From contig OZ316896.1 in assembly GCA_973895155.1 (NCBI GenBank), positions 8,019,539-8,083,538 on the forward strand: 64,000 nucleotides of DNA. The letters are read 5' to 3'. The position numbers and the translations under genes were made by a program. This stretch comes from Marsupella aquatica. Lineage: Eukaryota; Plantae; Marchantiophyta. The notes beneath the pieces were generated by a model that saw only the letters and a list, made by a program, of their open reading frames with translations, was not told the DNA's origin and did no database searches. Of the stretch, positions 15,120-53,258 are shown one piece after another; positions within the stretch are counted from its first letter, which is position 1; the number at the start of each line of letters is the position of its first letter.

Positions 15120-18100
15120 TGTGACGCCGCCGGTACGGCGGTTAATGAGTGATTCAGTCTAACTGCGCTCGGCACGCGCGTTAGGTGGGTCTTAGGCCGC
15201 TATTATTAGCATAACGACAGTATTTAGGTAATCATTAGGGGTAGGACATCATTAGGCAATAAGGGGGACTTCAGGTTTGGGCTGGCGGCGGGTCGCTATT
15301 TGCACACTCGGGTTACGAGCGTGGAAGGGCCCATCCCTCGGGTCCGTATAACAAACTTAAGGAAGCGGCCACTGACGCACGCTGACTCAGACCGGCGGAG
15401 TGGCCGGTACACCACAAGCGTGAGCGGTTCAGCCTATGGGCGTCAAGGAGACGTCGGGGATCGACAAGCCCTCAAAGTATAAAAGGGGAGCCAACCCTTT
15501 GTAGTGCACCAATCCATCAGTCCGCGCGCCAGCTTCGACCCTAGCTCTCCCGTTCTCTCTAGGTCGCCACTACTATCTCCTCTGAATGTCGCACACGATC
15601 CTCTCCAGCTCAGCCATTCGATTCTGGATGCAGTTCCTATCTACCGGAAGGCACTTGGTCGATTCATTGAAACACGCCAACCCGCGCCGATACGAAATCG
15701 AACGCGAATACGAGAGAGCCATCCGCCTAGCAGGACGATACCACTACGTCCTTAACTTTGACTACCCATCTCAGAGCGAGCTTTATCGACCAGCAGAGGT
15801 ATCTGGGTACTTCTTCAACGGAGACAAATATATCGGGTTCTGGGAAGCATTGCTTCGGCTTCCGGACGAGGTCTTCAACATCCCGGGTACAATCGACCTG
15901 CAGTGACATCACTTTGACCACATCCCTGCCCGGGTTCGGGCTGTCATTAACGGCGAGTCCAGTACCAACCGTTCGACAAGGGCGTCCGCACTCGCTTCGG
16001 AGAACTTCTACCAGCACCTGCAGAGCTTCATGGGAACTCGGCCATCAACCAACATGACCAACTTAGCCGTGCCCGTACCCGTACCCGTGCCCATGCAACC
16101 CCAGCCTCAACCTTAGGCTCAGCTTCAGCTTCAGCCTCAGCCGCAGCCTAGCCAAACCCCACCACCTATCACCCAGCCAGCATAGGTACGCTCCGTCATC
16201 AACGCTGTGGATCTTAGCGATGACGACGAGGCTACCCCACCCTTGACCAGGCGGCCCAGAGGAACAAGCGCTCGGGGGGCCGACACTATATCGTCCCCAC
16301 CCCCTGCTCTGACCCCAGGAGCGGCCCCAACAGACAACATGGTGACCGTGGCTGCCCCGGGCCCGTTACCAACGGTAGTGGCCCTCCCCAGGCCCGATCG
16401 GGAGGATGGGGAAGTATCACCTTCCCCGAGTCAGTCACGGGGAAAGAAGAGGAAGGAATCCGCCACTGCATCCGGGTTACCATTGGCCACGGTAGCCGTA
16501 GCCAAGGTGACGATGCACCGCATGGGGGAAAACGTTCACAGCAACATCCTCCATCCCAAGCATGCGGTGTACCTGAAGACTCAGGGATTTGAGCACCTCG
16601 CCTCTCTCCCCTGGAACACTTGCAGGTACTACGGGGAGGACATGACAGAATTCGTCAAGAATTATGACGACGTATGTCAACAGACTCGGCTGCGGGGAAG
16701 GAATATGTCCCTCATAGAAGAACGGCTCAAGATGATCTTCGGGTTACCCGAAGGTGACCATCGAGTCAAATCACGGGCTCCCGGGGGCAAGGGAGCCAAG
16801 TACCAATCTTCAAGTTTTCCCCCAGATGGAGCAGTGGACAACGGGTTCGTGATGAAAACCTGCCTCATCCCCGAGATAGCTGAGCGACTGGAGTTCCAGA
16901 GGTACGCCCTCCACATGATGGAACCCCGGGGGGAGATCTCCACCGCCCAGGTTATCCAGGTCGAGAACTATCGACCTAGGAGGTGGGCGTCGTACTTCAC
17001 TAAGAAATTCCATGAAGAGATGGAGCGGCGAAGGAAGACGCGTACATTGGCGGGAAGGCGTATTTCGCTAGCCACATCGAAATCATTCTTGAGTGGTACG
17101 CCCGGTTTGATCGACGAACCCTTCCCCGCATCAACGTTACAAAGCTGGTCCCAGCTAGGTGGGTTTTTCCGGCATTGGAGAGATGGCCCCAACCCGAGGC
17201 CCAAAGTCCAGTGGACACGCCAGCTTCACCCACCCCACCTCCACAAATAGCTGTAATCGTAACCGAGGAGGCGTCGGAGGGGTCGGTCATCGCAACCGTT
17301 GATGCGACCCAACTAGCCGGGCTAAGTACAAAAGTTGGTACGGCAGAGGTCTTACCCGAACCCGGGTCTCCCAAGGACCCACTGATGGCAATTCCAAAGA
17401 ACCGGACATTGCTGCAGGAGGACACTCCAGCCCCTTCCAACGTTATGTCCCCAGGGCTGGACGTCATTGCCCCGGCCCCTGGGCGTGTTGACGTCTGCCC
17501 GTGCCCAAATCCGGATAGGCACAACTTGGACCACCCAGAACTCTTCGTACAGGGTACGTTTCTGAACGGGCTTCTGGGAGATTTCTCTCATCAAATTGCC
17601 CGGGATACCGGGGAGTTCATGGCCCGGAAGGTAGCCTGTTTCTTCAATCAGGAGTTGGTTGCCGTAGTAAAGGCAGGTCGGGCCCAGTCGGAGGCCCTTC
17701 AGAGGATAGAGCAGTACCGGGTGGAGTCCGTGTACCTAAAGAACGAAGTGGCGGCTCAAGAGGCTGAGCTTCTGCAACTACGACCCAAGGTTGTAGCCGC
17801 CGATGAGTTGTTAGCAAAGGCGCACGCTCTTACCGCCCTAGCCGAACAGGCCAAAGCTAGAAACGAGGCCGAGATTACACGACTCTGGACCCAGATTGAC
17901 AGTTTGAAGAAACAAGTTGTCACCTGGCAGAAAGACCTGGAGGAGGCCGAGGAGCGAGCCCAGCGGGACACGGCGGAGATAGCCACGCTGCAGGCCAAGA
18001 TAGTGCGGCTCCAAACCGAGGCCGAGAAGCAGGATCAGCTGGCGGCTAAACTTACGAGCGATGCCCAGCAGCTGAAGGAGGCATGTCAGGAGGCAGTAGA

Positions 18101-18150
18101 GGAGACGGACGCGGCGAGGTGAGAGAACGAATCTCTGCTGGACCAGGTCA
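15120..18150 (+). mobile_element. 3'-truncated copy of the 4-kb protein-coding LTR (same family as 49281-53258)
   Basis: Starts TGTGACGCCGCCGG and is colinear with 49281-~52280; similarity ends at about 18150. Confidence 0.9.
15586..18122 (+). pseudogene. LTR-internal gene: unknown N-terminal domain, plant retrotransposon accessory domain (Transposase_32-like), coiled coil
   Basis: ORFs 15586 and 16207 are in frame across stops; frameshift near 17030 into the frame of 17175-18122; GFEHLASLPW...EFVKNYD...LRGR...IFGLP; TATAAAA at 15478. Confidence 0.65.
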
Positions 18151-19012: not shown

Positions 19013-19315
19013 ACTAAATTGATCTCAAGACTAATAAACATAAAACATAAAATAGTTCTAAGGCTAACAATCAAGTTAGTACCCAAGCATGGAGGTAAAT
19101 AATAAACAAGACATGTGCACAAGGAGGGAAGAGTTCCTTACAGTGTTGCGAGTCCAACACGATAGATCAAACAATGCAAATGCGGAGAGTGTGCTCCTCT
19201 TCACTTTATTTATAGTGCCCCTTTGTGTTTTCCAAGAGGGCATGGATCGATGCCTTGACCCTTGGATGGAAGCCAAGTGGCAAGCATCAAGCACCTATAA
19301 GTGTGCTAGTACTAT

Positions 19316-19560
19316 TCATAGTTGGTGGAACTACTGTGCGTAGTTGGTGGAATTATTACGCGTAATTGGTGGAACTACTATGCGTAATTGGTGCAACTAC
19401 TATGCGTAGTTGGTGAAACTACTATGCGTAATTGGTGCAACTACTATGCGTAGTTGGTGAAACTATTATGCGTAATTGGTGCAACTACTATGCGTAGTTG
19501 GTGGAATTACTATGCATCTAGTTTGTAAAACTACTATGCGTAAATGGTGGAACTACTGTG
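19316..19560. repeat. 22-bp tandem repeat, about 11 copies
   Basis: aactactatgcgta(g/a)ttggtg(g/c/a) units. Confidence 0.9.
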
Positions 19561-22255: not shown

Positions 22256-22676
22256 TGTTGGGTATTTACTCTTACGTCTAGGTTAGGTATGACGTGGTTG
22301 GTACAACAACGTGGGTTGGTACAACTACGTGGTTAGGTACAACTACGTGATTAGGTACAACTATGTGGTTAGGTACAACTACGTGATTAGGTACAACTAT
22401 GTGGTTAGGTACAACTAAGTTGCACACTATATCATAAGAGGCATGTGTGCTTGGAGAGGTAGAACCAAGGCTCATTGTTATGGAGCCACTTGAGAGATAG
22501 GGAGAGCTTACACTGTGGAGACTCGGTATAGCCGACGGGCTTAGAGTTCAATAAAGCTCTCTTGTGTGTTCCCGTGGACGTAGCCTCAAGGAGGTGAACC
22601 ACGTATCTCTTGTGTCGACTATTGTGCGTTGGATGGTTCATGGGCTTGCCGTTGCGTTCGTCGTCTATGCTCAACA
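22256..22676 (+). mobile_element. Solo LTR (421 bp, copia-like) with 5-bp TSD GTTTT
   Basis: TGTTG...CAACA termini; GTTTT at 22251-22255 and 22677-22681; AATAAA and CCCGTGGACGTAG...AACCACGT near the 3' end; internal 18-bp tandem repeat at 22294-22417. Confidence 0.9.
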
Positions 22677-25600: not shown

Positions 25601-28600
25601 CAAGTGGTTAATAAAACTAGCGCCGGACGCTAGTATAAAAAATTGGGCAAATATTGGAGTGGAACTAGGACACAAAAGTCAGTGGAAATAATGATAGCGC
25701 CAAGCGCTAGTATGACTTTGTTTGATTCCTTCTTTTAAAATGTTGATTTCGAGTGTTTACTTGTTTATGGATGTTGAAACTCACGAAACGAATGAAATTT
25801 CCCCATTGACGCCATCGGACCACCCACCACGCAAGCCAACCTTGGAGCATCCGAAGCTTTCCTAGAACACAATTCCCTGATCTCCACCACACGTCAATTT
25901 CCCTGGAAATTCTGTAGGCTCCAAGAAATATTGACGCGTTCCTTAAAGAGTCCCACATCTTCCGGTGCTCTTCTCATTTTTCTTCCAATACTCCTTTAAT
26001 TGAATGACGATGAAACGATTGATAGAAGTGAAATGCATCCGATCGCTCCTTTTCCGGGTTAGGATGTCCACCAAAAAACACATTCCAAACAACATTCCAT
26101 CCAGCTTGAGCATTGTCAGCCATGAATCCATGGATTACTACGTTGTCTAACCCATTTTCATGGCAAACCTCAATCATCAATTTCCAGGCTTTTTCTAACG
26201 ACTCAGAATCTTCAGCTTTCAACTCACATGTGAAAATTGTGCAAAGAGCATGGTAATTGTGATCATAAACGTGAGTGCTAAAAGTTATCCAATCCTTGGT
26301 CATTCTCCTCATCACATCAAAACTAACCCACACGCCTTCTAGTCGACCTCCAGGTTGCATTTGGCGCAACAAATCAACTCCAGATCCATGCCCTTTTACC
26401 ATCATTTTGAAAATATGTGGCCTCTCCTCCTTACAGCCTTGACCTGGGAGCATGTAACGTTGTAGAAAGGGAAAGTTTATGCATTTTTGCATTTCCACAA
26501 GAAACTCTAACTCACCTTTACCTTTTTGGTCTTGCCGAACACTCCAAAAAAGAGATGCAAACTTTTGAGGGGTCGAAACAACCATTAACGACTCCCAAAT
26601 TTCTCTTTCCTCCAATTCTCCGATGTCATTGTTGGACACACAGAGAGCCTTCCTTAAAGATCCAGTTATGGCATTCTTCATACCCGATGGTGTGGCACAC
26701 AGTGTAGCTTCATGTTGCTTCTTTATGAACTCATGAGCAATCTTTTCTGCACCTCGAGAAAAAACTTTACGACTGGGATGCGCATGAGTTCCAACATGCA
26801 CAGCAAGACGCGATATATGTTTACATGTATCCGCGTCGAGAAGTAATTGCGGGTACATATAAAAAAGCATTGTTGAACAAGCTTCAGTACAAAAGGGCAA
26901 TTGTTGGCAGTAGTGACAAACTACCCCACCCTCCTCAATAATCTTTCCCACGGTATGTGGCCCTGCAAGTTTGGGTGTCCCATCCCAAGATTTTGAATTT
27001 CTTCTTTTCTTCCGCAACAGATAATCACATTTCTGATTTCGACATTCGAGTGCACCGGTACACGTCACTTCACCAAATTCCCAAAAAAATTTAGGTTGGA
27101 CATTCGCAGAAGTTGGAAATATCCGTGTCCAGAAGTAGCAGTCTTTAGGCTGGTCCATGTCACGGAGCCTCAAACCTTTTGATAGCAGACCTTCTACGGG
27201 AGGCAATTCAAACACAACATTTCCATTGTATTTACTTGGTAGACAATTCACCTGCTCATGCCTGAAATCACTTGTTCAGATGAACCACGATAGTTCACTA
27301 TGGCCAGTTGATTTGAGAATGGCATCCATCGCACTTCGGCGGTACACAACACCCCCCGAAACATTTGGCTCGGAAGGAGAGTGACCTTCTATCTTGATAG
27401 AAGGCCCTGGATTGGCCGATGTCTGCAAATCTACGGCAACCTCCTCCTCATCACTCTCGGAAAGGTCAATGAATGGAACTGGATGTACTTCATTCAGAAC
27501 AGAATGTTGTCTGTCACACCATTGTAGGTAGTGTTAGAGTGTATCATACTATCTAGATCCATATGTTTGGTATGTGTGCTATATATGAGCCGATAAGGTT
27601 CCGTCAGGTTTGTGTGAGAGGGTACTTCTCACTTGTGAGGCATTGAAAGGTCATCTTTCAATGTTGAGCCTTGGAGAGAGAGGAGCTTGAGTGTGGCTAT
27701 GGTGGCTGTGAGCTCCGCTTGTGTAACGTGGATTCCTCGAGTAGTGCAAGGTGCGTTGGCTTGACATACGTGTGTGATCGGATCGGTGCGGGATCAAGGG
27801 GGTATTGTTGACCGGGATCGTTGTGCCGATTGTAGCGAGATTACATTGAAAGATCAGGCATCGGACTCTGCTGTTGTTGGACAGAGTTTCAATTTTCAGT
27901 TTGATTGTGTTCGACAATGGTTCGTGGTATCTCGGATCGTGCATCGTATTGCTTGATTGGATCGCCGGTATGTGGATCCAAGTTGAGATTGTGTGAGTTT
28001 CATTCTTGAGCGGATCTGGAGTGGAGGTTCGCCAGATCTGTAGCCTGTCTGTGGCTCTAAGCGTTTGTGTACCGATTGGCTGCAACTAGATCGAGTGTTG
28101 TGCTCTATGAATGTTCGATCTGCTGATTTGCGATCAGATAGTGTGTTGTTGTCGCCCGCATGTGAAGGGATCGATCCGACAAATGTGAAGGGATTGGATC
28201 TGTAGCCGAAGACCAATGCACTCCGCACATTGAACCTGCGTTTCTCAGAAGGGAATGACTATTGCATGTTGCCGAATCTGGCTCCAATGGTTTCACAAAG
28301 GGACGCGGCGCTAAGTGTAACCGAGACAGCTGTCGAGTAGGAGCGACAACCACATTTTTGTGAAGGAAATGACTGTTACATGTTGCTGATTTGGCGGTGC
28401 GGACTGTACGTGTTGGCGCTGATCCGAAGCGACCGTCATGCACCAATCCGGAAGCAGCCACCCGCCAGGAACATTGATGCATTTTGTGAAGGTGAAGTTT
28501 GAATGTCGCCAAATCTGAAAGTCGGTCTGGCGCAGCGTTTGAACAGACGTCGATGCTGTCACGACGGATTGCACGCTGCCACGCCGCTACTGTGCATTTT

Positions 28601-29387
28601 GCGAAGGGAAACAGAGGGCGTAGTGGGCGTGAAGGGCCCACTCTTTGGCTCATCTCGGCGCTTGGAGGCTTCGAGGTAACTCGTGGTTACTCGGGACGTG
28701 AGGGCGGAGCAGGCGGGCCAGCTTGCTGGTACATGAAGAGTAGTTTGCAAGCTGCTGATTTTGGAGCGGCCAATTTGGTGCATAAGTACAAGTGAGAGGT
28801 CACCCATCCCAAAGCTATTCCTTCCCCATGCGCTTAACTATGTGGTTCTTAAGTGCTCTTGTGTACACACACTCCTTTCCACTTTGATGTTAATGGAATG
28901 AGCACTTAGGCATTTTATACACATACTAGTTTGTTTAGATTGTCATTTTGGGGCAAATCATAAGCTCCCTTAAGGTTTTTGATGCTTCTGAATCCATCTA
29001 GATGCATGGATTGAACCAATTGAGCATGGATCCTTAACTACGACATTGAACATTGAGAGGCCTATTATGAAGGCCCCACATTGAACATTATAAACATTGT
29101 TTGATTGATGTATGATAACTATTGATGTGGAGAGTTATTGTGGATCTCTTCTTGTTGATTGGATTCTCTCCACATATGCGCCATGTTTATGCGCCATGTT
29201 AGTTTGGCGTGGGCGCTTGATTCTATAGGAGTGATCCGGGTTTGCAACCAGACATTCTAGTTGTGCTACATATTTCTCTCCTGGTGATGTTGGAGTGATG
29301 CCCAACACACCATGGTGAGTGCTTGTGTTGCTGACAGGGACAGATTGCCCTTAGGGTTAGCATATAGATTAGGTTAGGTTGGTCACC

Positions 29388-31753
29388 ATGGATTCTTCTA
29401 GTGCTGCTGGGTTATCCAAAGGACGACGGACCGGTTTCACTCGGAGTGGGGCATAGTTTCGGCCAGCGGCATTGGTAGCAGTCAGTAGTGCAACTTTAGA
29501 CAGTGATTCCGACGAGGACTCAGTCACCAGTTCTCCTCGTCATCAGGTGGTTGCACCTTTATTGTGGGATATGGAAGAGATGTACGGGGCTACAAAGGGC
29601 CCACGACGATACTCTGGTGCAGTTGGCACGATTGATCTGGATGACTTCATCCAGGAGTTTGATACGTGGTGCGATATGCAGACATTGCGTAACGCCACGT
29701 TGTTTACCCCTTTCATGGCATGGAAGGGATTATTTCAGCATTTGGAGGGGCCACCCATGGATGACTACCATGAGTTTCGGAAGGCTCATTTGGTTGAGAT
29801 TGAGGCATGGAGGCAGCATTGTTCGCCTAAGTACGTGTCCATCACCTATGGCACTAGTGCGGCTGCCCAACCCATTGCCACAGCCGCTGCTTCTTCTAGC
29901 AGCACTAGCCAGAGTGGCACACCATCCACCAGCAGCACTCCAGCAGCATCCACCACTACTCCTGCCGGTGTGATTGTGACAGGAACTGGAGTTGCACCAG
30001 CATTTAACCCTGTGGTGGAATTCTTTGAGGTACTGAAGCAGAACTATCAGGGTGTGAGAACTGATAAGTTGAAGGGTCTCTAGGAGTTCCAGCGCAAGAC
30101 TGGAGAGAGTCTACGTGAGGCATACACTTGTATGCGCAGATTGATCACTGTCACCAAGGGAGTGACAGAGGCTTAGGCAGTCCAGTTTTGGTATGCAATT
30201 CTAGACAGAGAATTGCAACGCAGAGTGAGAGATGTCACTTTGCTTAGGGATGCAGATCCCACATTAGCAGTTGTTTTTACCCTTTCTGAGTGCATTGAGC
30301 TCAATATGGTGAATGAGAAGGTGGTGACTTCCGGATTTGCCAAGGAAGCACCAAAAGCTGCATCTACATCCACACCACAGCCTACTGCACGAGAGTCTAC
30401 CAGCCAGAGATCTGTGCCTTCTTATGGTGGACAGCAGTCAAGATATTGGACCTGTGGTGGGGATCATGCACAGAGAGATTGTCCAGATCATAGAGGATCA
30501 GGGGGAGCATCAGCGCCTGATCAGTGATAGTGTGATCACTGTGGAGCTCCTGGACACACCAAGGATAGGTGTTTCTCACTCCACCCTAAGTTACGGAGGG
30601 GAGGATCCCGTACACATGATCAAGGAAGAGGAGGAGGAGGTAGAGGTGGTGGACGTGGTCGTGGCCTGCCACATGCAGGGAGACAGGGAGGTGATGCTGC
30701 CCCTACTGTAACCATAGATCCAAAGGATGCTAAGATTGCTCAATTGGAGCAATAGCTAACTGCCATGGCTAGTTCCCAGGTGAGACCTACTTCTGGTGAT
30801 GGGGCATCTACATCCTATGGACCTTCCACATCCCATGGTCCTTCCACATCTTATGGAGCTGATGGAGACCTTGCCACCATGGGATTCATGTGCGGCACTG
30901 CACATATTGATGCATTAGCAGCGTTGACACGTGGGGCGCCAAAGCTCTTGAGCCCCGAGGAGCAATAGTGGAGTTAGATCCACAAAGGGGGGATGCACGT
31001 TGGCAGACAAAGCTTCCTCAGTCTTTTACATTGTCAAAGACAATTCAGACTGCCTCTATGAATCCGGTTCGGACAAACCCTGATGTGGGTAAGTCGGCAA
31101 AATCAGGTAGTGATGCAGCAGGGATGACAGGTACCCTGCTAGGGGCGGCTACTGCCATGGTACACACCCCATTATTTTCAGCGACAGACATGCTGAACTT
31201 GGGAGTTGGTCCTGCAGAAGTGTTCAGATTGGCAGCTACACTCTGTGAGGACACTCCAGTGGTTGCTTCCCATGCAGAAGCAGCTTGCAGTGTTGAAGTA
31301 GTGAAGACCATGCCACCTACTGCTACTAGTGAGACATGGCATGCAGCAGCAGCGAGGTTGGTGGATTTACCAGCACGCCCTGCATTTGAGAGGACTAGGT
31401 TTAAACCTAGTGTTGTATCATTGGATAATCGGAGTGGTATCTTCCGATTAGTTGGGCCTTATGGAGTAGTATACTAGCCAGAGAGGGTGTTATTGGATAC
31501 TGGTGCTCAACCCTTGATGTTGGGAAAGTTTGCCATACGTGGATTGGGATTGCGTCCAGAGGATTTGGAGGATTGTCCCTTTCCCATTCAGACTTCATTG
31601 GGGGGACCTACACCTACACAGCACATTACCAGGAGACCTCTTGATTTGAGGATTCAAGAAGGTCATACCATAGATAGCTCACAGATACAAGCGCGAGCTA
31701 TTCTGACTAAGGCAGAGTCATATGATGTGTTGGTGGGATGTACAGTGCTCTAG
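29388..31753 (+). pseudogene. Gag (two zinc knuckles) and aspartic protease
   Basis: YSGAVGTIDLDDFIQEF; YWTCGGDHAQRDC and CDHCGAPGHTKDRC (about 30444-30572); VLLDTGAQPL at 31487; many in-frame stops. Confidence 0.85.
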
Positions 31754-32073
31754 CCCATGGAATTTATTCTTGATTTTTGGGAGGAATCAGTGTCATATAG
31801 ACCTGATTGACAGTCAAGAGATGCTCGTTGAGCAAATTGCCAATGAGATTTAGTGGACCTATGGGAGGCCCTAAATCCACACCATTGTCTTTGGCAGCAT
31901 TCAGTGGTCTAATTGTTGGACCTGATGATTTGATTGAGGGTAATGCGCATGCAGCAGATGTTCCACCATTGGAGGAGTCTCATGAGGAGCACATCATGCG
32001 AGGATTACCTGTTGGTAGTGTTGTGTCACCAGTGTGGGGCACTGCACATGCCTTGCCATAGGCAGCAGCACGA

Positions 32074-33072
32074 TTGGTACATGATGCATGGCGTCATGCT
32101 TTTACACCACAGTCAGGAGCAGAGCAGTATCTTGCAGATGGACCTGTGACTCTTTCACCATTGGATACCACTCCTATTGCTTGGCAATATCCACAAGAGG
32201 GTATTTGTTTGTTGGATCTTTTTGGTGGGATTAGCATTGGATTGGCTGCTATCACTGGATTGGCTGCACGGAGGGTCTCATTGCGACATGTGGCTATGTT
32301 GGTGGATAGATATCCACAGTTGCTGCCAATGGATGCTGTTCGTGGTTATCAGCATGCACTACCTGCTGATATTTCATTGCTGGGGGCGGATCATCTACAT
32401 CATGTTGGCCCCATTGATTTGGTGATTGCTGGTTGGCCATGTCAGGGCCAATCTAGAGCTGGCGTTGGGCATGGACTTCATGATCCACGCTCTGCATTGT
32501 TTTGGGAGATGTTACGGGTGCTGCGTCATCTCCAGCTACATCAGACACAGCCTCCAACATACATTTTGGAGAATGTGCCATTGTTAGGTGATGATCGTAG
32601 TCGGATTGTTGCCAGTGTTTACCAGGTGAGGTCTTGGATTGGACCTGCTGTGTTATTGGATGCTGCACGTGTGGGTTCTCGTGCACATCGTCCATGCTTG
32701 TGGTGGACTAATTTTGATCCCATGTGAGGTGCTGAAGCGCGCATTTGACAGTATTCCACGCTCACCAGCCTTAGTGGTGGATGATATTTTGGATCCAGAG
32801 CGTCGTGCACAGGGTGTGACCCACCTTGATCGTCCTCCATTGGCAATGGTCAATGCAGTTGGGCGCCCACGTTGTGCATTACCCACTCTTGTAAGCCACT
32901 CTACTTCATATGCATTCAGAGCAGGTGGCCCTGGACTTGTGTGGGACACAGCTCTCCAGCAGTTAGTGGAACCTACTGCTGATGAGAGAGAGCGTGCTAT
33001 GGGATTTTTGACTGGCACCACTGCTGTTGCCTCTGTGTCAGAGGGTTTGCGGCGCCAGGTTCTTGGTCAAGC
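32074..33072 (+). pseudogene. DNMT3-like C5-cytosine DNA methyltransferase domain within pol
   Basis: Motif I LLDLFGGISIG, IV IAGWPCQ, VI ILENV, VIII SRAHRPCLWWTN, IX-X ERERAMGF...RRQVLGQA; frameshift near 32720. Confidence 0.9.
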
Positions 33073-33166
33073 TGGACAGATTGTTGAGCAAGAAGGGATT
33101 GCTCAATCTACTGCTAAATAGCAATCATCGGCTATCTCTTCTACCCTACAAAGAGATATTAGGGAT

Positions 33167-34275
33167 TTGGTGGAGAGTTGGAAACCACAGCTTGGCCCTA
33201 AGTTGACAGGGGAGGAGAGACGTCGCATGCATCGATTCCTGAAGAGTTACTGGAATTGTTTTGCATTTAGCATGAAGGATTTGGGGACATTAAAGGGTCC
33301 TGGTATTCAGATTGAATTGGCTAGTGATGCGCCAATCTTTCGTAGGCCATACCATTACAGTGACATGGAGAGAGCTCTGATTCAAAGCAGAACTCAAGAT
33401 TTGTTGGAGGCTAGATTGGTGGAGATTTCATATGGGGAGTATGCATCTGCCACAGTGATGCCAGCCAAGAAGGATGTGCATGGCAATTACAGAGATAGGC
33501 GCATGTGTGGTGATTACAGACCCATTAATCGCCAGACAAAATCTGATAGATATGCCATGCCCACACCTGAGGAGATCTTTGATGCTGTGGGGTATGCAAA
33601 GGTTTTCAGTTCATTGGATCTGAGGGCAGGGTACCATCAGCTTCCAATTAGGCATGCTGACAGGTCCAAGACAGCATTCTGGGGGATTGATTCTTATGGC
33701 AAAAATTGTTTGTATCAGTGGTTATTCTTACCATTTGGGTTGAAGAATGCACCAACTGAGTTCCAGAGAGTCATGGATCGAATCCTTGCAGGTTTGGATT
33801 TTGTCAGATGTTATATTGATGATATTTTGGTCTATTCTTCTACTGTGGAAGAACATCAGTAGCACTTGCAGACTGTGTTAGAGAGATTGAGAGCACATGG
33901 GTTGAAGCTCCATCCTAGCAAGTGTAAGTTCTTCCAAGACCAGATTGAGTATTTGGGCCACACTATATACCCAGGGGAATTGGGTGTACAGCAGACTAAA
34001 GTGGAGGCCATTACACAGATTCCTTGTCCTATTGATGTGAGTAGAGTTCGTGCATTCTTGGGATTGGCGAGCTATTACAGGAGGTATGTTAAAGGATTTA
34101 GCCAGCTTGCTAAACCTTGACCATACTCACTAAGTTGGATCAGGAATGGATTTGGGGTGATGACCAGGAGCATGCCTTTAAGGAGTTGAAGCAAAGGTTG
34201 GCATCATCCCCTATTTTGAGAAGACCCATTTCAGCTACACACTGATTGGAGTGGAGTAGGACTTGGAGCAGTGTT
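33167..34275 (+). pseudogene. Gypsy reverse transcriptase and start of RNase H
   Basis: RMCGDYRPIN, FSSLDLRAGYHQ, LPFGLKNAP, YIDD, VRAFLGLASYYRRYV. Confidence 0.95.
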
Positions 34276-34649
34276 GGGGTACACAACATCATCAGTTATT
34301 AGTGGCTGATAACTGACATCAGTTGCTGATATCAGTTATCTCAAAAATTTTAGAATCTCAGTTGAGGAGTTGAGAAGGGCCTTCGAACTTCCGCTCATCT
34401 CAGCTGGGCAGCCGAGGTTGATTCAATCTCGGCTGACCTCGGCGAGATGGGCGTACGGACCAAAAATAAAATAAAAAATAAAAAAACCAAAAAAATTTCC
34501 CGAAAAAAAAACATTTTGAAAAAAAAAAATTGAAATTTTTTTCCCCATCTCAGCTGGCCTCGCCGAGATGGGGCGTACGGACCGAAAAAAAACGTGGAAA
34601 AAAAAAACCAAAAATTTTCCCAAAAAAAAATTTGAAACAAAAATTTTTG
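34276..34649. other. Foreign A-tract-rich fragment replacing most of the RNase H (probable truncated MITE-like insertion)
   Basis: Abrupt loss of pol similarity; starts GGGGTACACAAC; duplicated CATCTCAGCTGG...CGAGATGGGCGTACGGACC. Confidence 0.55.
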
Positions 34650-36050
34650 GATTCTATTGTTGGCAGTGTTGATGCCAAAGAACGTGACAGGGTTCTACAG
34701 AGAGCCAAGAGGTTTCGATGGGAGGGAAACCATCTTTTGAGAGTACTGCATGATGGTAGGGTGTTGGTGGTACCAAAACCATCACAACGAGTACATTTGG
34801 TGCAACATGCACACGAGGAGTTGGGGCACTTTGGTGTGAAGCGCACTTATAGCTTGCTACAGGCACAGTATTGGTGGCGTGGTATGCACACTCATGTCCA
34901 ACAGTTGATAGCTAAGTGTGTGGTATGTGATAGAGTGAGGGCATCATTTAATGCTCCCACTCCCCAGTTGCATCCGTTGCCGATCATGGGTTTGGGATAT
35001 CGTTGGAGTTTGGATTTTGCTGGTCCATTATCTCTCACCCAACGTCATAATCGGTATGTTTTGGTCATGGTGGAGCACTTCTCCAAGTGGATTGAGCTAG
35101 TGGCGTTGCCCGATAAAGCTAGTGGAGGAGTTGCTGCTACATTTTTGGATCGTGTACTTAGTCATTTTGGAGCACCAGCTGAGGTGTTGACTGATCAGGG
35201 AACTGAGTTCCGTGGAGAGTTTGAGATTTTGTGTGAACAAGCTCTGATTGATCATCGTACTACCTCTTGTGATCATCTTGAGGCAGATGGATTAGCTGAG
35301 AGAGTTGTGCAAACTGTGAAGAGAGGATTGCGTAAGTATGGCTTGCAGGTTGGTCATTTGGGAGATTGGGATCTCCAGCTATCTTGGTTAGCTATGGGCT
35401 ACCGTTTCAGTCGGCAAGCATCACTTGCATCCTTCTCACCTTACTTTTTGCTCTATGGTAGAGAGCCAGATTTGCCAGCAGCTATTCATCGTCATGCTGC
35501 ACCAGTTGTGAACTTGGATGATCCTGATGTTTGAGTCAAGGTGTGTTCAGAGAGAGCACGGGTATTTCAGAGAGTGATGCCCATGGCTTTTGACAACCTT
35601 GCCATTGCCCAACATTGTGATACTTTGAGGTATGCCACTATTCGTGGAGGAGGTTACCGTGCAAGCATTCGACGATTTCATCCTGGTGATTATGTTTATT
35701 TACAGCAGACAGCACCCACGACACTTGATGTGACCGCAGGCCAGACAATCTTACGTGTGCGTGAAGTGTTGCCTTCTGGTGTCCTGATGTTGGAGGGAAG
35801 CGATGGTATGGTTTGGAAGGATCATGTGCGCAACTGTGCACCATGTCACCTTCCCAACATTGATGGTACAGTAGATCCAAGCTTGGCACATGTTCGTGCT
35901 GGCTTGAAATGTATGTTGTGTGGATCTGCTCAGGGAGCAGCTACTATGTTGATTTGTGATAAGTGTTCTAGAGGATGGCACATGTCATGTTTGACACCAC
36001 CATTGCAGGTGATTCCTAGTGGATCATGGTTGTGTCCTCAGTGTCGGTGA
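34650..36050 (+). pseudogene. Integrase (HHCC, DDE) with C-terminal PHD finger
   Basis: HEELGH...CVVC, WSLDFAGP, LTDQGTEF, GLAERVV; PHD CMLC...ICDKC...WHMSC...WLCPQC; one stop at 35532-35534. Confidence 0.93.
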
Positions 36051-37771
36051 AGCCAACTAGTTATCATTTGTGTTCTCTTGGCAGATATGGATTGCAGGTA
36101 GGTGATCGATGGGGCTCACTTGCACCCGGCCTCCTGATCTTCACACCTAAAAAGGTGTATATCAACCTTGTAGAACTCATGGCTAGCTAGAGTTAGGGGA
36201 CCTTACTCCCAGCTAGGGGGATGATTGTGGGTTTTGGATATGTGTGGACATGAGTTCCACTTGTATTTCATTCTCTTGTGTTTGTGATGTGGCAGTGTGA
36301 CTATGTTTGGATGTATGTGACAAGCGATGTATGTTGTGTAGCGATGTGTATGCGCACGACAGCTGTCACACCATTCTAGGTAGTGTTAGAGTGTATCGTA
36401 CTATCTAGATCCATATGTTTGATATGTATGCTATGTGAGCCGATAAGGTTTCGTCAGGTTTGTGTGAGATGGTACTTCTCACTTGTGAGGCATTGAAAGG
36501 TCATCTTTCAATGTTGAGCCTTGGAGAGAGAGGAGCTTGAGTGTGGCTATGGTGGCTGTGAGCTCCGCTTGTGTAACGTGGATTCCTTGAGTAGTGCAAG
36601 GTGTGTTGGCTTGACATACGTGTGTGATCGGATTGGTGCGGGATTGAGGGGGTATTGTTGACCAGGATCGTTGTGCCGATTGTAGCGAGATTATTGTGGG
36701 TTTTGGACATGTGTGGACATGAGTTCCACTTGTATTCCATTCTCTTGTGTTTGTGATGTGGCAGTGTGACTATGTTTGGATGTATGTGACAAGCGATGTA
36801 TGTTGTGTTGCGATGTGTATGTGCACGACATGTCGGATATTGATAATATATCTCTTTCCAGCGTTGAGGTGCCAAAATCTGACTCCATCATCGATATCAA
36901 ACAGTGCGTCATCTGTCTCCTCTCCAGATGCATGGTCAGGTTTGATGGAATGGATGTCGTTGATGGCAACGTCAAATCTTCCACAAAGATAGTTCTCACT
37001 AACCTGTTTGTACGTGTCGGATGAACCTACAGGGATGCTTACAATCTCCCCAGTATCAGGACGAAGAAGCACGACTGAATTAGACATTGCGGGAGAATGA
37101 TATTAATTTGATAAACAAAGGAACTGAGAAAATAGGAGAACATTACTCCACTTAAGTTAAGTAAACTCATTCCGAACCTCAGAAGATTATGGTTTGTAAA
37201 CGACAAAACGAGTACTAGTCGTTAGATGCAGATACATAAATGTAGTTTGTTGTTTTGCCAACGACACTACTTACCGGTAACGTGTAAAAAATGTGATCAG
37301 ATAATTATTAGCGCCCGACGCTACCATAAAGAAGTACTCGGGTTTCAACTTAGAAACCAGACTGAATGTGCTAGCGCTAGGCGCTATCATTAGCAGACTG
37401 CCAAGTCAGAGCAAAATATTTTATTGATTTTGATGTAATTGCTGAAAAAATCAATAAACGTTTTATTTTGTTTTGGAATCGGTACTTCTTGGGAAAATAC
37501 AAGGGGTATACATAGCTAGCGTCCGATGCTGACATAATCTCCTCTATGTCATTGTCATGTATGAGAGAATTTTTAATGGTTTTTGATACTAGCGTCGGGC
37601 GCTAGTATCGATGGAGATGACTTTGGTTTGCCCAACGGTTACATCTAACGGTAACATGTATGAACGAATTCCTTACTTTATGTTGTTTTCTGTTGGATTG
37701 TTTAACGATACACTCCCGTTCATCGCTGCATCCACAAATGACTTGAAAATAGACGTTAATTCTACTCATCA

Positions 37772-40700
37772 CATAGTGACGGACCAAACGAGAAGTGTGG
37801 TCACACTTCTCATTTTGCCCATGGCGCAAAAAAATTCTAAGGCAAAAACGTATTGGATATGAAATTGGTATTCCCTCTAAAAACCCAAATTTTAGATTTT
37901 AAAAACGAGAAAAAACAATTTGAATTTGAAGTTGGGATACGGCGTATCCCATTTTGGATCCCACCGCGGTTTTCCAAAAAGAAAATACAACAAACGCAGT
38001 AAAAGGGGCAAGGTCATTTTACTCATCAAGAATATTCCTAGAAAATTCTTTTTAACGGTAACTTTTAACTGACTGCGATGAAACTACAGATAGAAATTGA
38101 CCACGGTCGGGGGCAAACTATAAATAGGAGAGCCATGATCAAATATTTCCGCTCATTTCTTCTCGCTCCCGCATCCTCTTGCTCCCCCGAGAATCCACAC
38201 TCTCTATGCAAATTCGTATCCCCCCGAATCAAACTAGAATCTGAACAAGTGAGAATGATATATCTTTTTGGAAATGATGAGGACGAATCCCAAATGGGAT
38301 ATGGCGTATCCCATTTGCGATTCAATCTTCAAAAATCCAGTTGGGTATCATAAACGTGAAAAAATGAGGTTGGATCAACCTCTAAATATGAAGCATTTAG
38401 GTGCGAAATGCAAGAAATTCAAGGTTGAATGCAAAATGGGATACCGCGTATCCCATTTCGGATTCAACCGATGAATCACACGCATTTTAGAATCAAAAGA
38501 TAGAAAATTCAATGTTGAATGCAAAGTGGGATACCAAGTATCCCATTTGGTATTCAACCTCTGAATATCTCACGTTAGGTCTCAAAAGCAGAGGTTGAAT
38601 GTGAAGTGGGATACTGGGTATCTCACAATAAACACAGTGATGAACCAAATGAGGAGTGGGAATGCACAAGCCATAAGTTTAGGAGTTGAATACGAAATGG
38701 GATACCACGTATCCTACTTTGGATTCAATCCAAGGATATGAGGCTTTTGGAATGCACAAGCCATAAATTGAGAAATTCAATCCAAAACTAGTGAATACCG
38801 GGTCATTCTTAGCTTTGAGCCCCTAAGCTTTCAATTTTTTTTTCAAAGTCAAATCCAAAGACCCTATCTAGCTGCCTGAGAATCTTGAAATGATCCAAAT
38901 TCATACTTAACATCTTCATCACTAGTTGTGACAAGAATTGATATGAAAACAATGAAAGATGGACTAAGATATGATCAGATTAAGTTGTGGGGTGAAATTA
39001 TAAAATTACAAAAACTTAAGTTTGTACCCTCTCACGCTTCGGAAGCCATATCTTTATCGGTATTTATCCAAATTCCTTATAATTGATACCGTTAGAAAGA
39101 AGAGCTTGAGACTTTTCAGCCTCTTTACTCGGCGCTGCAAAAATAGAAAAGAAAAAATTTGAGATCAGGCAAAATCTCGCAAAAAAATCAGATTGCATTT
39201 GTAAAAAAATCACAAATGATCAAAATTTCAAGAGGAATACCAAGTGGGATACCAAGTATCCCATGTAGTATTCAAACATGTTATTTCACAAATCTAGACG
39301 GAAAAAATCATAAAACCTTGTATGAATACCAGGTGAACATGTTGTTTTATCCCATTTGGTATAAGAATATGTTATTTTACAAATCAAGAACTTTACAAAG
39401 AGTGATAAGAATTTTACAAAGACCAAATGAAATCCAATTTGGTATTCAAATGTGAAAATGGATGAGTGACTTGTGACCGAGGGCCAATCCGGGACTTTGA
39501 ATCTGAGGTGGGATCCACAAACCCACTTGGTATTTGCCTCCATTTTTAGGTAGGTCTGTTGATTGGTTCTACATATTTTGAAAGAGTAAAAAATGGATGT
39601 GATTGGGGTTGTGCTGAGCAAGGAAAAATCCAAAATTGTTTTGGAGTTGAATCAACAAATGGGACTCATGGATCCGTGTCGGTATGGATCCATGTCGGTA
39701 TGGATCTGTGTCGGTATTCAAACCTCAATATTGAGGTGCAAGGTGTGGCAAGGGCAAATTTTGGCGGGTGAATACCAAATGGGATCCGTGGATCCGTGTT
39801 GGTATTCAAACCTCAATATCAAGGTGCAAGGTGCGACAAGGGCAAATTTTGGCAGGCGAATACCAAATGGGATATTTTTGGACTTGTTCAGAAAACTCAT
39901 CCTTGGTTTTGAGTGGGTTATTTTTGGACTTGTTCAGAAAAATGGGATACGTGGATCCCTATTGGCATTCCCTGATTGGTCCGTACGAGGGTTTTTTATA
40001 GTGAGAGTCTATCTTTTCAAGGAATGCTGAAATCTAAATTGTAGATTTTTTAGGAAGTCGTCGTGGATCCCAGTTGGTCTTCAACTAGAATATCAAGGTA
40101 TGTGGTGTGAAAAGTTCAAACTGTAGAGGTTGAATACTAGATGGGATCCATGGATCCCATCTGGTATTCATCCTCCTGTTTTCCCGATGAGTTTTTGGAC
40201 TTGCAAAAACAAATGGGATCCATGGATCTCAGTTGGTATTCATGTCGAAAGATCTCCTGATGCAAAGTTGCAGGTGGAAAACATTGAGGTTGAATACGAG
40301 AGTGGATACTTGGATCCTGTCTCGTATTCATCATGCGTTATGGGCTAAAATATTTCCGAAGATGTCGTCGGGTTAACTTAACTAACTGTATGGGTTGACT
40401 GTAGTCTGCGGTCAGTTTTTCGCAGTTTTTGGTTTTACTGCAGTTAAAAATTCAAATATTTTAAACCCGAGGTTAAGTGGAAGCGTCAAGAGAATGATTT
40501 GGTGCGGTTTTTGTTCACGTTCAACGGTTGAATCCGAAATGGGATACGCCGTATCCCATTTTCAGTTTGCCATTTTGATTGCAAAAATGAAATCTTGTGT
40601 TTTCCTAGTTTTGTTTGACGCTCGGATTTAGCTTTTAGAAGGATCACGTGAAAAACATTGTTTTTCTAGGTTTTGGAATTTGCTCTTTTTTTAGATGACG

Positions 40701-45600: not shown

Positions 45601-46137
45601 CCTACTAAGAAAGTCGTCTTCTGCAGCTCCCACAATCGAGCGAGCTCCTGCCGTTCTCGAGCTGCCCTTTCTGATTCCTCGTCCTCGTAAGTCTTGATGT
45701 ACTCAGTTGCCCGTTCGAACAGGCATCCCCAGAAATGTGCCGCTTGATTGACGTTGCTCATACCCTCCTTAGGTCGATCGTCGGTATCTATTCTCTCCCC
45801 GAGTGCTTGCCTAAGCAGCTGACAGTAGTTGGCCTCCCATAGTCGTCTGCCTAGTTCGTGCTCGCAAATGAGCCACCATCTCCTACAAGCGCTCCTTACC
45901 CCTCTCCTCTTCCGGTCCTTCCTCCCGTTGATCCTTCCTAGCCGCCGACGCTTAGCGCGCCCTAACCCTAATCGAGTTTTCACCCCCAGCGTCCTTACCT
46001 CCGGCCTCGGCCCGGGTTCCATGGTCGCCCCTAATTGTTTATATTTTCCTTGTTTTGTCCCTATACTAAGGTGTTTCTAGGGTGCCTTCCTGCTTTACCC
46101 ACTTAACTAGCCGAGTGATTCCTGTCTAGGCATCACA
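42603..46137 (-). mobile_element. 3.5-kb 3' LTR of a Gypsy element, containing a long coiled-coil gene
   Basis: Purine-rich AAGTGGGGAG at the end of the integrase, then TGTGATGC at 46137; ends GCACCACA at 42603 (7/8 inverted match). Confidence 0.7.
43517..46022 (-). pseudogene. LTR-internal coiled-coil protein gene (four ORF segments)
   Basis: ORFs 45249-46022, 44950-45309, 44239-44943 and 43517-44212 abut on the same strand; long E/K/R-rich helical stretches. Confidence 0.65.
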
Positions 46138-47901
46138 TAGCTCCCCACTTAATTGTGAAGCGTCCTCGCGAACAACTTCATCTTCGTCCATATAGTATTT
46201 CTTGAGGTGGTCATAATGGATGCAAACTGGATATACCTCTCCCGTAATGTTGGCCAATTGTACGGAGCCATTGGAGAACATTATGGTTACTCTAAAGGGT
46301 CCTAACCAGCGAGTGTAAAGCTTTCCTGGAAACCTACTATACCTACTGTCATACAGTAACACAAGATCACCGGTGTGAATACTAACTACTTTCAACTTTT
46401 TATCATACTGATGCTTCATGATATTCTGTTTATATTCTACTCTCTCGGCTGAAATCATTCTCGCCTCCTCTAAAGCTTCTAACCTATATTCTCGCTCCTT
46501 TAGGCTCTCCTCCGCTGAGGCTCTTTCCTCAATTGTAACTTGAAATGTCGGTATCTCAAGTTGCATGGGTACCAGGGCTTCTTGTCCAAAGGTTAAGAAG
46601 AAGGGTGTATGACCGGTAGTGGATTTATAGGCTAGATTGTAAGCAAAAACAGCAGCAAACAATTTATCATCCCAATCGAGTTTGTTCTGAGCTACTGTCT
46701 TGTTCAATATCTTTCCTATAATTCCGTTTGCTCGTTCTGTCAACCCATTTGCCTTTGGATGGTAGGGAGTAGTAGGCCTATGTCTAACTAAATACTGCTC
46801 ATTTAAACGACTAATTATATCATTCAGAAAATGGGTTCCTCTATCACTAACTAATTCTAGGGGTGCTCCATACCTGGTGAAGATCTGCTCATACATGAAT
46901 CTAGCCGTAGTAATTGCATCATCCTTCGTGGTCGGTCTGGCCTCTACCCATTTAGTTGCATAATCCGTAGCCAAGATTATGTACTTATTCCGTCGAGGGT
47001 GGGTCAGTGGTTTCAGAGGTCCGATGTAATCAATACCCCACTTCTCGAATGGTGCCAGAGGTAGAATAGGGTGCAGTGGATGTCTGGTGGACGCCCTTGG
47101 TCCTCCCGCTCGCTGACAAGGATCGCATTGTTTGATAAACTGATAGACATCCTTGTGCAAGGTGGGCCACCAGTAACCGGCATTTAATATCTTTTTAGAC
47201 GTGGTTACCGGGGCAAAATGTCCTCCGGCCTCCTCTCCATGCATGGCCCGTAGGACTCGTTTTACCTCTCCCTTTTCCAAACACCTTTGAATCGTGCCGT
47301 TGATTCCATGCTTGTGCAGTATGCCTTTAATGCATTGATACTGTCTGACCTTCCGCACAAAGACTGCGGCTTGTTCTCGGCTTAATCCTGGCTGTAATCT
47401 GGAAGTGCTGAGAAAATGTAAAATCTCAGGGTACCATGTATCAGCTATTTCCACAACGAATAGCTCCTCGTCGGGGAATCGATCATCGATGCAATCCATG
47501 GCAGGTTCACCTGTGATCCTTGAAAAGAAGTTGGCATTGGCGTGTAACTTTCCTGGCTTGATCCTCAGCTCATAGTCAAACTCCTGTAATAGCAAAATCC
47601 ATCTTGCTACTCTGCCTGTAAGGTCCGGCTTATTGACTAGGTACTTCAAACTTTCATGATCGGTATGAAAGATTACCTTGTACCCTAGTAAATAATGCCT
47701 AAACTTTTTACAAGAATAAATGACTCCTAATGCTTCTCTCTTTGTGGTGGAGTAGTTCCGTTCGGCATCGGCAAGCTGACGGCTTGCGAAGTATATGGGA
47801 TGGTCCCTTCCTTTCTCATCCAACTGACTTAGTACTGAGCCGATACAGAAGCCCGAGACATCGACAAAAACATGAAAGTCTTTGTTCCAGTCCGGTATCA
47901 T
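46126..47901 (-). CDS. Gypsy pol fragment (RNase H + integrase), 5' part deleted
   Basis: FHVFVDVSG, NYSTTKREALG, HTDH, H..GGHF..CDPC, WGIDYIGP, VSDRGTHF, NGLTERAN, WLGPF. Confidence 0.93.
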   Translation of the reverse strand: MIPDWNKDFHVFVDVSGFCIGSVLSQLDEKGRDHPIYFASRQLADAERNYSTTKREALGVIYSCKKFRHYLLGYKVIFHTDHESLKYLVNKPDLTGRVARWILLLQEFDYELRIKPGKLHANANFFSRITGEPAMDCIDDRFPDEELFVVEIADTWYPEILHFLSTSRLQPGLSREQAAVFVRKVRQYQCIKGILHKHGINGTIQRCLEKGEVKRVLRAMHGEEAGGHFAPVTTSKKILNAGYWWPTLHKDVYQFIKQCDPCQRAGGPRASTRHPLHPILPLAPFEKWGIDYIGPLKPLTHPRRNKYIILATDYATKWVEARPTTKDDAITTARFMYEQIFTRYGAPLELVSDRGTHFLNDIISRLNEQYLVRHRPTTPYHPKANGLTERANGIIGKILNKTVAQNKLDWDDKLFAAVFAYNLAYKSTTGHTPFFLTFGQEALVPMQLEIPTFQVTIEERASAEESLKEREYRLEALEEARMISAERVEYKQNIMKHQYDKKLKVVSIHTGDLVLLYDSRYSRFPGKLYTRWLGPFRVTIMFSNGSVQLANITGEVYPVCIHYDHLKKYYMDEDEVVREDASQLSGELCDA

Positions 47902-48839: not shown

Positions 48840-49280
48840 GTTATAATCATATAAGAGAGCATCAAGTCCAATGGATTTTTAAGGCTTCACAACTTAGTTG
48901 ATGAAAAATGGGGAGTGAGGGGAGAGAGCCCCTCTCCTCTTTATTTATAGTGCTCACACCTCAAGCACACGGATCAAGCATGGCACACGGATGGAAGCCA
49001 TGTGTCACATATCCAAGGCAAGTAAGTGTGCTAGTACTGTAGTTACGTGAGTGGAGCAACTATAGGCAGTACACTGTAGCATGCACACTGTAGATCGTAC
49101 ACTATAACATGCACACTGTAGATCGTACACTGTAGCATGCATACTATAGATCGTACACTGTAGATTGTACACTATAGCATGCACACTGTAGATCATACAC
49201 TGTAGATCGTACATTGTAGCATGCATACTATAGATCGTACACTGTAGCATGCACACTGTAAGTCTTGCACTGTAGCATGC

Positions 49281-52200: not shown

Positions 52201-53258
52201 AGCAGTTGGAGTAGGCTTGTCAGGAGGCAGCAGAGGAGACGGACACGGCAAGGCGAGAGAACGAATCTCTGCTGGACCAGGTCCAACTCCTCAAAGCGGA
52301 CAATGACAGGCTCTGAAGGCAGCGGGATGGCCGCTCCCATTCAGGTGGCTGTGGCAAGCGTGCCAGGCATTAGCGGCGGAGTAGGAATAGAGTAGGATTA
52401 GGACTAGCTTAGTCAGGCTCTTGGGACAGGCACCTGCCTCAGGTACAGCATCGCTGTCGTGCTGTCCAGCCTGCATAGATTAGGATCTTTTAATAAGACA
52501 CAGCCGTTTCCGGCCTGACTGTCAGCTTAGTTAGGACCGTAGTTAGTGAATCTTCGGCGAGAGGACACCCCGTCCCTCGGCCCTTAGTATTTAGTGCACC
52601 CCCTTGGTAGAGACGGGGGGGTTTTTAGTTGCAAAGTTGGGCGTCCGCGGTATGTGCGGGGAGTCCCGACCTCTGGGAATGAAAGAGTACCAAGGGGAGG
52701 GGGTAGGACTAAGCTCGTCGGGCGAGTGCGGAGCCGGGCTACGTTGTAGTGTGCACCCTTGGCCTTGAACCAGTTCATTCCGGGGCTGTTGGGTCAACTA
52801 AGTGTACGCATATGTTCCCTTTGTAGTAAAATCCTTTCCCATCATTTTCCTTCGTGTAAATCGAGATTGTATGCATGTGCGCGTGTATGTGTGTGGGTTT
52901 CTCGTATATGCAGGCCGAACGCACTACCCGAGACGTGCATAGGGTGCACCCTGCGGGTAAGTGGTTGCGAGCACGGGTTGAGGACCTGTATCATCGAATC
53001 CGGATCGAAGGCGAACAGCTCGAAGGCTTAGAAGCCCTTAAGCCGGGGTCGATCCTGCTATCGACTAAGGTACGTTCCGGCGGCGGAACACAAACCATAC
53101 CTAGGAGGTGTCCGTATTTAGCAGTATGCGTACTTAGCGCTAGTTTACGAGAATAAGGTGCATTACGTGCTTCCCTTCCTGCCCAAACCCTCAGATTTAC
53201 GAGGGATATGCCCGTCTAAGCTGAAGTCTGAGTTAAGGCCGTAGCCGATGACGTGACA
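49281..53258 (+). mobile_element. 3978-bp solo LTR with 5-bp TSD CATGC, containing a long gene
   Basis: TGTGAC...GTGACA ends; CATGC at 49276-49280 and 53259-53263; no gag/pol inside. Confidence 0.88.
49748..52395 (+). pseudogene. LTR-internal gene (paralog of 15586-18122)
   Basis: ATG at 49748 is in frame with 50342-51385; same frameshift as copy 1; TATAAAA at 49640. Confidence 0.65.

Follow-up and report, generated by a model that had tools for sequence, protein, structure and literature searches.

We describe a Gypsy retrotransposon whose DDE integrase very probably uses an attachment site located inside the long terminal repeat (LTR). The element occupies positions 27512 to 36830 of a 64,000-nucleotide stretch of the genome of the liverwort Marsupella aquatica (assembly GCA_973895155.1, contig OZ316896.1, positions 8,019,539 to 8,083,538; the whole stretch is hereafter called the window), where it interrupts a host open reading frame (ORF). 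It has a lone repeat A at its 5′ end and the series B-GC-A-B at its 3′ end, and comparison with related sequences confirmed such split end repeats, together with 4-bp target duplications, as a trait of the whole lineage. The window element is itself a dead, decayed copy of a moss/liverwort-type Gypsy retrotransposon. The features that define its ends are the following, in window coordinates.

27508..27511, + strand: left copy of the target-site duplication (TSD), TGTC
27512..27842, + strand: repeat A1, starting with TGT (left integrase end), 95.5% identical to A2; likely to hold the promoter, R and U5
27653..27664, + strand: predicted self-primer and transcript 5′ end ATCTTTCAATGT, A positions 142-153, 12/12 complementary to 27843-27854
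27843..27854, + strand: primer-binding site of the Tf1 self-priming type, ACATTGAAAGAT; 0/200 control 12-mers match as well
36215..36223, + strand: polypurine tract directly before B1, in the majority of reads AGGGGGGCG; a G-run precedes B1 in relatives
36224..36361, + strand: repeat B1, 3′ end CGACA
36358..36367, + strand: palindrome GACA-GC-TGTC, conserved in relatives, probable attachment site of the integrase within the LTR
36364..36692, + strand: repeat A2
36693..36830, + strand: repeat B2, joined bluntly to the end of A2 and ending in ACA (right integrase end)
36831..36834, + strand: right copy of the TSD, TGTC
25974..37100, − strand: interrupted multi-copy host ORF, its frame continuous across the empty site

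The boundaries had originally been placed by the 4-bp duplication and by restoration of the host frame, and both grounds held. TGTC flanks the two ends, contigs of sequencing run X2, read from both sides, contain the empty site with a single TGTC, and in silico excision of the element with one TGTC left an uninterrupted minus-strand frame. A contig of run X1 crosses the insertion junction (27451-27554) with 0 differences. As X1 and X2 may include the source sample, these contigs exclude a misassembly but supply no additional independent copies of the window insertion. A1 (27512-27842/3) and A2 (36364-36692/3) are identical in 317 of 332 columns, and B1 (36224-36361) and B2 (36693-36830) in 134 of 138; GC at 36362-36363 separates B1 from A2, and self-BLAST of the window found no B at the 5′ end of the element. 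The predicted arrangement of A, B and GC is therefore as described, except that base 27843 is better assigned to the primer site, as its first base, than to the end of A1. For the host ORF, called a transposase in the original prediction, profile search gave no Pfam match, and its class was left unassigned; a ToxA_barrel match (E 0.002) was below the cut-off and was taken as noise.

Relatives were collected by a metagenome scan with the integrase, from which the best 80 of 510 loci were used (69 distinct at 98.5% identity), all on short-read metagenome contigs. The order polypurine tract-B-spacer-A-B was found 3′ of the integrase in 21 of the 69 distinct loci, distributed over three families with unrelated A and B. 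Polypurine tract and B followed by flank were found in 15 (L028 being merged with L002), and B-spacer-A followed by a contig break in 3; the remaining loci were too short, deleted or not readable, among them 16 without repeat-library matches. Paired B-GC-A LTRs occurred in none of the 80 loci. Three complete elements have the A...B-GC-A-B form (L019, L050 and L074) and five the form A...B (L008, L015, L020, L025 and L075). TSDs match at 4/4 positions in five of these eight full-length relatives (L019, L050, L015, L025 and L075) and at 3/4 in L074 and L008. L020, an A...B element inside another repeat, shows a decayed 8-bp instead of a 4-bp duplication. With 21 distinct loci, three complete copies and perfect TSDs in five of eight, the expectation that other copies share the permuted ends and 4-bp TSDs was borne out.

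The end sequences are equally uniform. All 8 resolved 5′ ends and the window copy start with TGTCA, and ACA forms the final bases of 34/34 listed 3′ ends, from which L056 and L078 were excluded because their ends are not fixed. This agrees with the proposed integration at ACA-GC-TGT inside the LTR, in which GC is lost. Contigs from four runs of three studies were also counted where they leave the repeats; among the matches listed (24 of 558 and 18 of 136), 48, 25, 49 and 15 contigs leave the end of B into diverse, unrelated sequence, so in 4/4 runs (agreement 0.36-0.41), and 14 and 5 enter the start of A from unrelated sequence in X2. Viral contigs contained neither the junction pattern nor a relative of the element.

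The internal site stands out by its conservation. GACA-GC-TGTC is kept at about 50% integrase identity across families whose A and B differ strongly, its spacer is GC or a deamination product of it (AC, GT or AT) in 23/23 junctions read in register (that of L030, out of register, is not among the 23), and nearly all changes from the palindrome are of the C/G deamination type. In 868 kb, 13 matches were seen against about 0.8 expected by chance. The exact 10-mer lies 3′ of the integrase even in the distant loci L057, L059, L067 and L077 (43-50% identity), and its GT form in L004; in L067 the arms are altered on both sides to give CCCGACA-GC-TGTCGGG. No second B was found 3′ of the palindrome in these five loci, which thus display the palindrome but not the layout. 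A second exact copy, GACAGCTGTC at 28325-28334 in the 5′ leader, is not conserved in relatives and was set aside.

A standard LTR cycle turns such an element into cDNA of the form (B-GC-A)-internal-(B-GC-A). As had been predicted, B-GC-A is likely to be the reverse-transcription LTR, because in relatives the polypurine tract directly adjoins B1 and the self-priming site directly follows A1. The predicted cDNA ends (B start and A end) then carry neither TG nor CA. The tract does lie directly before B1 as proposed, but G and C at 36221-36222 in most copies extend it to 36223 as AGGGGGGCG, beyond the predicted end at 36221. When the 12-mer following A1 was compared with the site in A at 11 5′ ends, 12/12 bases paired in four, 11/12 in one, 10/12 in four (one of them with another site in A) and 9/12 in two, and for 9/11 ends an equal match occurred in at most 1.5% of control 12-mers. 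The pair covaries across families (ACATTGAAAGAT, ACTCAAAGAACT and TCTAGAAAAACT), L004 has an extra 16-nt pair (2/200 shuffles), two related families have a TATA-like box some 31-32 nt farther upstream, and the minimum-energy fold of L008 pairs primer with site. An inverted pair of 14 nt in L067 was excluded from this evidence, 11/200 shuffles being as long. A tRNA-type primer site was rejected, as no 5′ end shown has TGG after A1. ARAGORN detected no tRNA gene in the window.

Several further observations concern the same region. In the window element (27637-27664), L008, L019 and L004, the primer-site sequence occurs once more immediately 5′ of the predicted self-primer, forming a hairpin that would mask the primer in transcripts starting farther upstream; this extra copy is missing in the L050/L074 family. 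L004 contains polypurine tract-B-GT-A-primer site in one piece (8545-9040), that is, a whole reverse-transcription LTR, which may be a collapsed assembly, a tandem copy or a one-LTR circle. L043 is a circular contig of about 9 kb.

The repeats within single elements bear on how the A|B join arises. B1 and B2 of one element have private indels and transversions in common from nt 13-16 onward, the A2 of L074 carries the private 3′ extension of its A1, and A-pair and B-pair divergence are alike in 4/4 elements (4.0/2.9, 7.7/6.2, 11.7/11.4 and 10.4/10.5%). By this comparison, B2 is recopied from B1 in each cycle and the A|B join is rebuilt. Among 22 joins read by eye, 11 are blunt, three have short deletions, one has an insertion, four are ambiguous, and three (L030, L039 and L056) contain 1-2 extra bases that equal the first primer-site bases; to judge from these, the junctions look like end-joined cDNA termini. 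Separately, 19, 10 and 6 contigs enter from mixed sequence at 36687-36688, five bases before B2 (agreement 0.5-0.7), and probably represent subfamilies with other A ends.

An explanation that would accommodate this layout begins with transcription in the middle of A. The element RNA would prime itself and pass through the ordinary two-jump LTR route of reverse transcription, and the ends of the resulting B-GC-A...B-GC-A cDNA would be joined, most probably as a two-LTR circle. The integrase would then cut GACA-GC-TGTC inside one repeat and insert the cut ends. Cutting after CA on each strand would leave GC overhangs of 2 nt, as at normally processed ends; GC would be lost during repair, and the former cDNA ends would persist as the A2|B2 join. 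A cut of joined cDNA at its left palindrome would produce exactly the observed A...B-GC-A-B element, and the shorter A...B form would arise if both palindromes were used or if the circle had a single LTR. We consider this explanation, taken whole, somewhat likelier to be right than wrong, and the balance tips slightly towards joining, as a circle, before integration.

A number of points weigh against this explanation. A plain two-LTR circle offers two equal palindromes, so that the mirror form A-B-GC-A-internal-B should equal the observed one in frequency, but none of the 8 full-length relatives shows it. Equality of the forms was rejected by likelihood ratio (15.6, p 8e-5; 21 B-A-B and 15 B-only, five among the latter being resolved A...B), in a test that assumes unbiased assembly and gives p 0.125 on full-length copies alone. 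Of the circular intermediate opened at an attachment site inside the LTR, as the original prediction had it, the internal site is upheld and the mirror form that a plain two-LTR circle predicts is missing. This calls for an asymmetric cut of the circle, or for integration before joining with repair turning right-cut events into A...B. The A...B copies may also stem from recombination between B1 and B2 or from assembly collapse. Position 2 of B2 is A against G in B1 in 4/6 copies of one family, a hint of an inherited junction, yet the join itself gives rise to a CAG that is prone to methylation. Where a TATA would be expected, the window copy has none; its minimum-energy fold leaves primer and site unpaired (the centroid pairs them in part), and fold z-scores are significant neither for it nor for L008. 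Summed contig depth over 27858-27990 is about 1-2% of that over A, which suggests that most A copies in those runs come without the window 5′ leader, as other subfamilies or solo A-B units. Circle, transcript ends and cleavage are, moreover, all predicted from sequence.

The first alternative keeps the internal site and dispenses with the circle: linear cDNA would be inserted through one palindrome, and the resulting chromosomal break between the A end and the B start would then be repaired, by end-joining to give A...B-GC-A-B or by repeat annealing to give A...B, while cuts in the right LTR would vanish as A...B through the longer A homology. The end-joined A|B junctions are accounted for in this way, as are the frequency of the A...B form (15/36, not different from half, p 0.41) and, in part, the absence of the mirror form. 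On the other hand, double-strand break repair would be required at every insertion, perfectly blunt joins make up half of all, and the A homology (290-340 bp) is just 2-3 times that of B (95-176 bp), from which a near-total bias may not follow. We regard this alternative as possible but unlikely.

Templating of the PAT/Ngaro kind, in which the transcript would extend into B2, the A2|B2 join would be inherited through RNA and B1-GC-A2 would merely rebuild the ends, appears improbable. The layout matches that of PAT and Ngaro as these are described in PMC4157794 and PMC3783388, the asymmetry could be built in, the position-2 variant common to 4/6 copies is what an inherited join would show, and joins are uniform in the window's family, with no indel near 36690 among the matches listed. 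But the element-private variants common to B1 and B2 from nt 13-16 onward restrict the inheritable part to at most about 12 bases, A2 of L074 has the private 3′ extension of A1, some joins contain extra primer-site bases, and primer site and purine tract are placed as an ordinary LTR cycle requires.

It is far less probable still that a tyrosine recombinase acting in trans inserts circles at the junction with the integrase as a passenger. Split repeats are typical of tyrosine-recombinase elements, but a search of 74 six-frame ORFs of at least 70 aa (window element and L075) and of the domain lists of 120 long homologues yielded no such recombinase, and the D, D and E of the integrase are present. 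Variable 4-bp duplications, TG...CA ends and loss of a 2-bp spacer are consistent with DDE chemistry, and the element's own 4-bp duplications, ends and spacer loss fit it. That a single rearrangement or an assembly error made this layout from an ordinary LTR element, as the decay and rearranged RNase H of the window copy might suggest, is refuted by the relatives, given the same 3′ layout in 21 independent loci, three complete copies with TSDs, and the junction-spanning contig and empty site in public runs.

The explanation by self-priming, joined cDNA ends and an internal cut thus remains the one that we favour, and it concerns an element of otherwise typical Gypsy content, ordered as A1, gag, protease, DNMT3-like methyltransferase, reverse transcriptase, broken RNase H, DDE integrase, PHD finger, polypurine tract, B1-GC-A2-B2. 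Its coding parts are the following.

29571..30950, + strand: gag-like region with a CCHC knuckle at ~30531-30572 and several stops, recognized by translation and tblastn homology to relatives; no Pfam match
31478..31750, + strand: decayed aspartic protease with the motif LLDTGA in translation (Asp_protease_2 E 0.013, below the cut-off)
32158..32724, + strand: DNMT3-like C5 cytosine methyltransferase (PF00145 E 4.7e-12; best solved relatives DNMT3A, E 8e-9)
33260..34117, + strand: reverse transcriptase (YIDD) with one in-frame stop (RVT_1 E 3.8e-19 and 9.6e-8)
34123..34652, + strand: RNase H remnant (to ~34296) and a foreign piece of ~375 bp (in tblastn, P0003 aligns over aa 1-57 and then over 262-726)
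34653..35900, + strand: DDE integrase with HHCC zinc finger, D, D and E motifs and one stop (Integrase_H2C2 E 1e-16, rve E 7.8e-13)
35910..36047, + strand: PHD finger at the integrase C-terminus (PF00628 E 9.8e-12)

The nearest solved structure to the integrase is Ty3 Gag-Pol (E 4e-18). The window copy is dead because of its many stops and because about 375 foreign bases stand in place of some 200 codons of RNase H and linker; RNase H is present in L075, and intact homologous polyproteins exist for the lineage. The foreign insert (34277-34652), which takes the place of most of RNase H and the linker, contains an internal 103-bp repeat and A/T runs. A DNMT3-type domain was found in 33/37 loci with at least 3 kb upstream of the integrase. 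In the distant alga-like loci L032, L049, L053, L054, L055, L057 and L059 a methyltransferase lies between reverse transcriptase and integrase, not before reverse transcriptase. Among named proteins, the nearest come from liverworts (79-81%), Sphagnum, Klebsormidium (52-53%) and chlorophytes (43-49%). The methyltransferase, the PHD finger, the foreign piece in RNase H and the self-priming character of the primer site go beyond the original prediction.

The lineage shares with Ty3/Gypsy elements the order protease, reverse transcriptase, RNase H, integrase, the HHCC and DDE integrase, TG...CA ends, TSDs within 4-6 bp, a primer site after the 5′ repeat and a purine tract before the 3′ repeat. 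It has A...B-GC-A-B or A...B in place of two complete direct terminal LTRs and is therefore a structural variant of Ty3/Gypsy, not a canonical member. The original prediction regarded split repeats as foreign to integrase elements, which does not stand: according to the Fig. 4c legend of de Mendoza et al. 2018 (PMC5890265), KnitGypsy-Dnmt3 of Klebsormidium nitens already combines Gypsy domains with DIRS-type repeats (A-coding-B-A-B). That element resembles ours in its Gypsy domains, the DNMT3-type methyltransferase in pol and these repeats, whereas the passages of PMC5890265 that describe it give no TSD, junction, priming site, mechanism or land-plant members. A 2026 preprint mentions streptophyte Gypsy-DNMT3. 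Integrase-PHD proteins of K. nitens are 52-53% identical and form one clade with the split-repeat loci (support 0.90) in an integrase tree made of relatives only, from which L061 and L046 were dropped as too short. The K. nitens proteins P0008, P0027 and P0076, which are not labelled as published KnitGypsy-Dnmt3 copies, group with the split-repeat loci, and L067 is sister to a K. nitens protein (support 1.0).

PAT, TOC and Ngaro are described as having direct repeats split in the order A1-B1-A2-B2, with an end-to-end junction lying internally (PMC4157794, PMC3783388, PMC7192593). The window lineage is like them in both respects and differs in its DDE integrase, the lack of a recombinase in our searches, its 4-bp TSDs, a C5 instead of an adenine methylase, and its purine tract and self-priming site. 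PAT/Ngaro elements are not known to have an integrase-type target duplication. In Tf1/Sushi and Tcn1, too, the primer site is the complement of a segment within the 5′ repeat (PMC4600332, PMC6317226), but these elements have paired LTRs and chromodomains, in contrast to the split repeats, PHD finger and methyltransferase of the window lineage.

The closest parallel to the proposed cut comes from retroviral circles. In accounts of the two-LTR circles of HIV-1 and foamy virus, integrase cleaves both strands of the palindromic CA-NN-TG junction (PMC1180852, PMC1905944), and in the case of foamy virus the integrase cuts the LTR-LTR palindrome behind the CA of each strand, so that 2-nt overhangs remain (PMC1180852, section 8). 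A palindromic CA-NN-TG cut on both strands is also what genomic copies lead us to propose here. The retroviral palindrome is formed at joined cDNA ends and its cleavage restores the usual provirus, whereas in the window lineage it is encoded inside the LTR, the cDNA ends lack TG and CA, and the product is permuted. Troyka is another LTR-type element with unusual ends (5′-CG..CG-3′ ends, 3-bp TSDs, paired LTRs, animals only; PMC12440569); identity with it was rejected, the window lineage having TGT...ACA ends and 4-bp TSDs. Accounts of PHD-bearing algal Gypsy elements and REM1 (PMC9940879, PMC2774666, PMC8557442) do not describe, in the parts devoted to these elements, the A...B-GC-A-B layout. 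The split-repeat architecture is thus already in print, while the mechanism apparently has not been worked out: full-text searches of the open literature, whose scope did not extend to subscription papers and Repbase entries, found nothing on an internal attachment site, on self-priming, on TSDs or on product forms in these elements, so that an earlier description is possible. New here are the self-priming site, the conserved GACA-GC-TGTC, the recopying of B2 and the end-joined-looking A|B junctions.

The rest of the window contains further repeats. A 3.0-kb direct repeat (15120-18149 and 49281-52283) is 91.6% identical between its copies, which both start with TGTGAC and have long ORFs without Pfam match. 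A second Gypsy RNase H-integrase lies at 46129-47901 on the minus strand, a non-LTR-type reverse transcriptase at 56494-58810 (E 4e-29) and a DUF7869 protein at 54891-55478 (E 3e-43). Tandem arrays occupy 3988-5241, 19281-19560, 22282-22425 and 49031-49303 (units of 256, 22, 18 and 14 bp), and a cluster of short palindromic repeats (37892-40593) is located downstream of the host ORF start.

Retroviral-type integrases are held to act on linear cDNA ends. Whether LTR circles can integrate has been debated chiefly on the basis of in vitro cleavage and drug-reversal work. The natural insertions described here record cuts at a site that the positions of primer site and purine tract exclude as a cDNA end; if the integrase cuts there as proposed, this lineage would offer a natural experiment on the integration of joined (circular) retroelement DNA. 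The defined substrate (GACA-GC-TGTC), the intact homologous polyproteins and the countable product forms make the question directly testable. LTR finders that require paired LTRs (for example under the criteria in PMC6317226) would miss this high-copy, methyltransferase-carrying clade of non-seed plants. With slightly less than an even chance, in our estimate, a whole green-plant clade from algae to mosses and liverworts may have shifted its integrase attachment sites away from the cDNA ends to mid-LTR and may integrate obligately from an end-joined two-LTR circle, its DDE integrase opening the circle at one chosen palindrome. If true, this would be the first eukaryotic retroelement with circles as its normal substrate, and a living model for how the split-repeat (PAT/Ngaro) architecture could arise from an ordinary LTR cycle.

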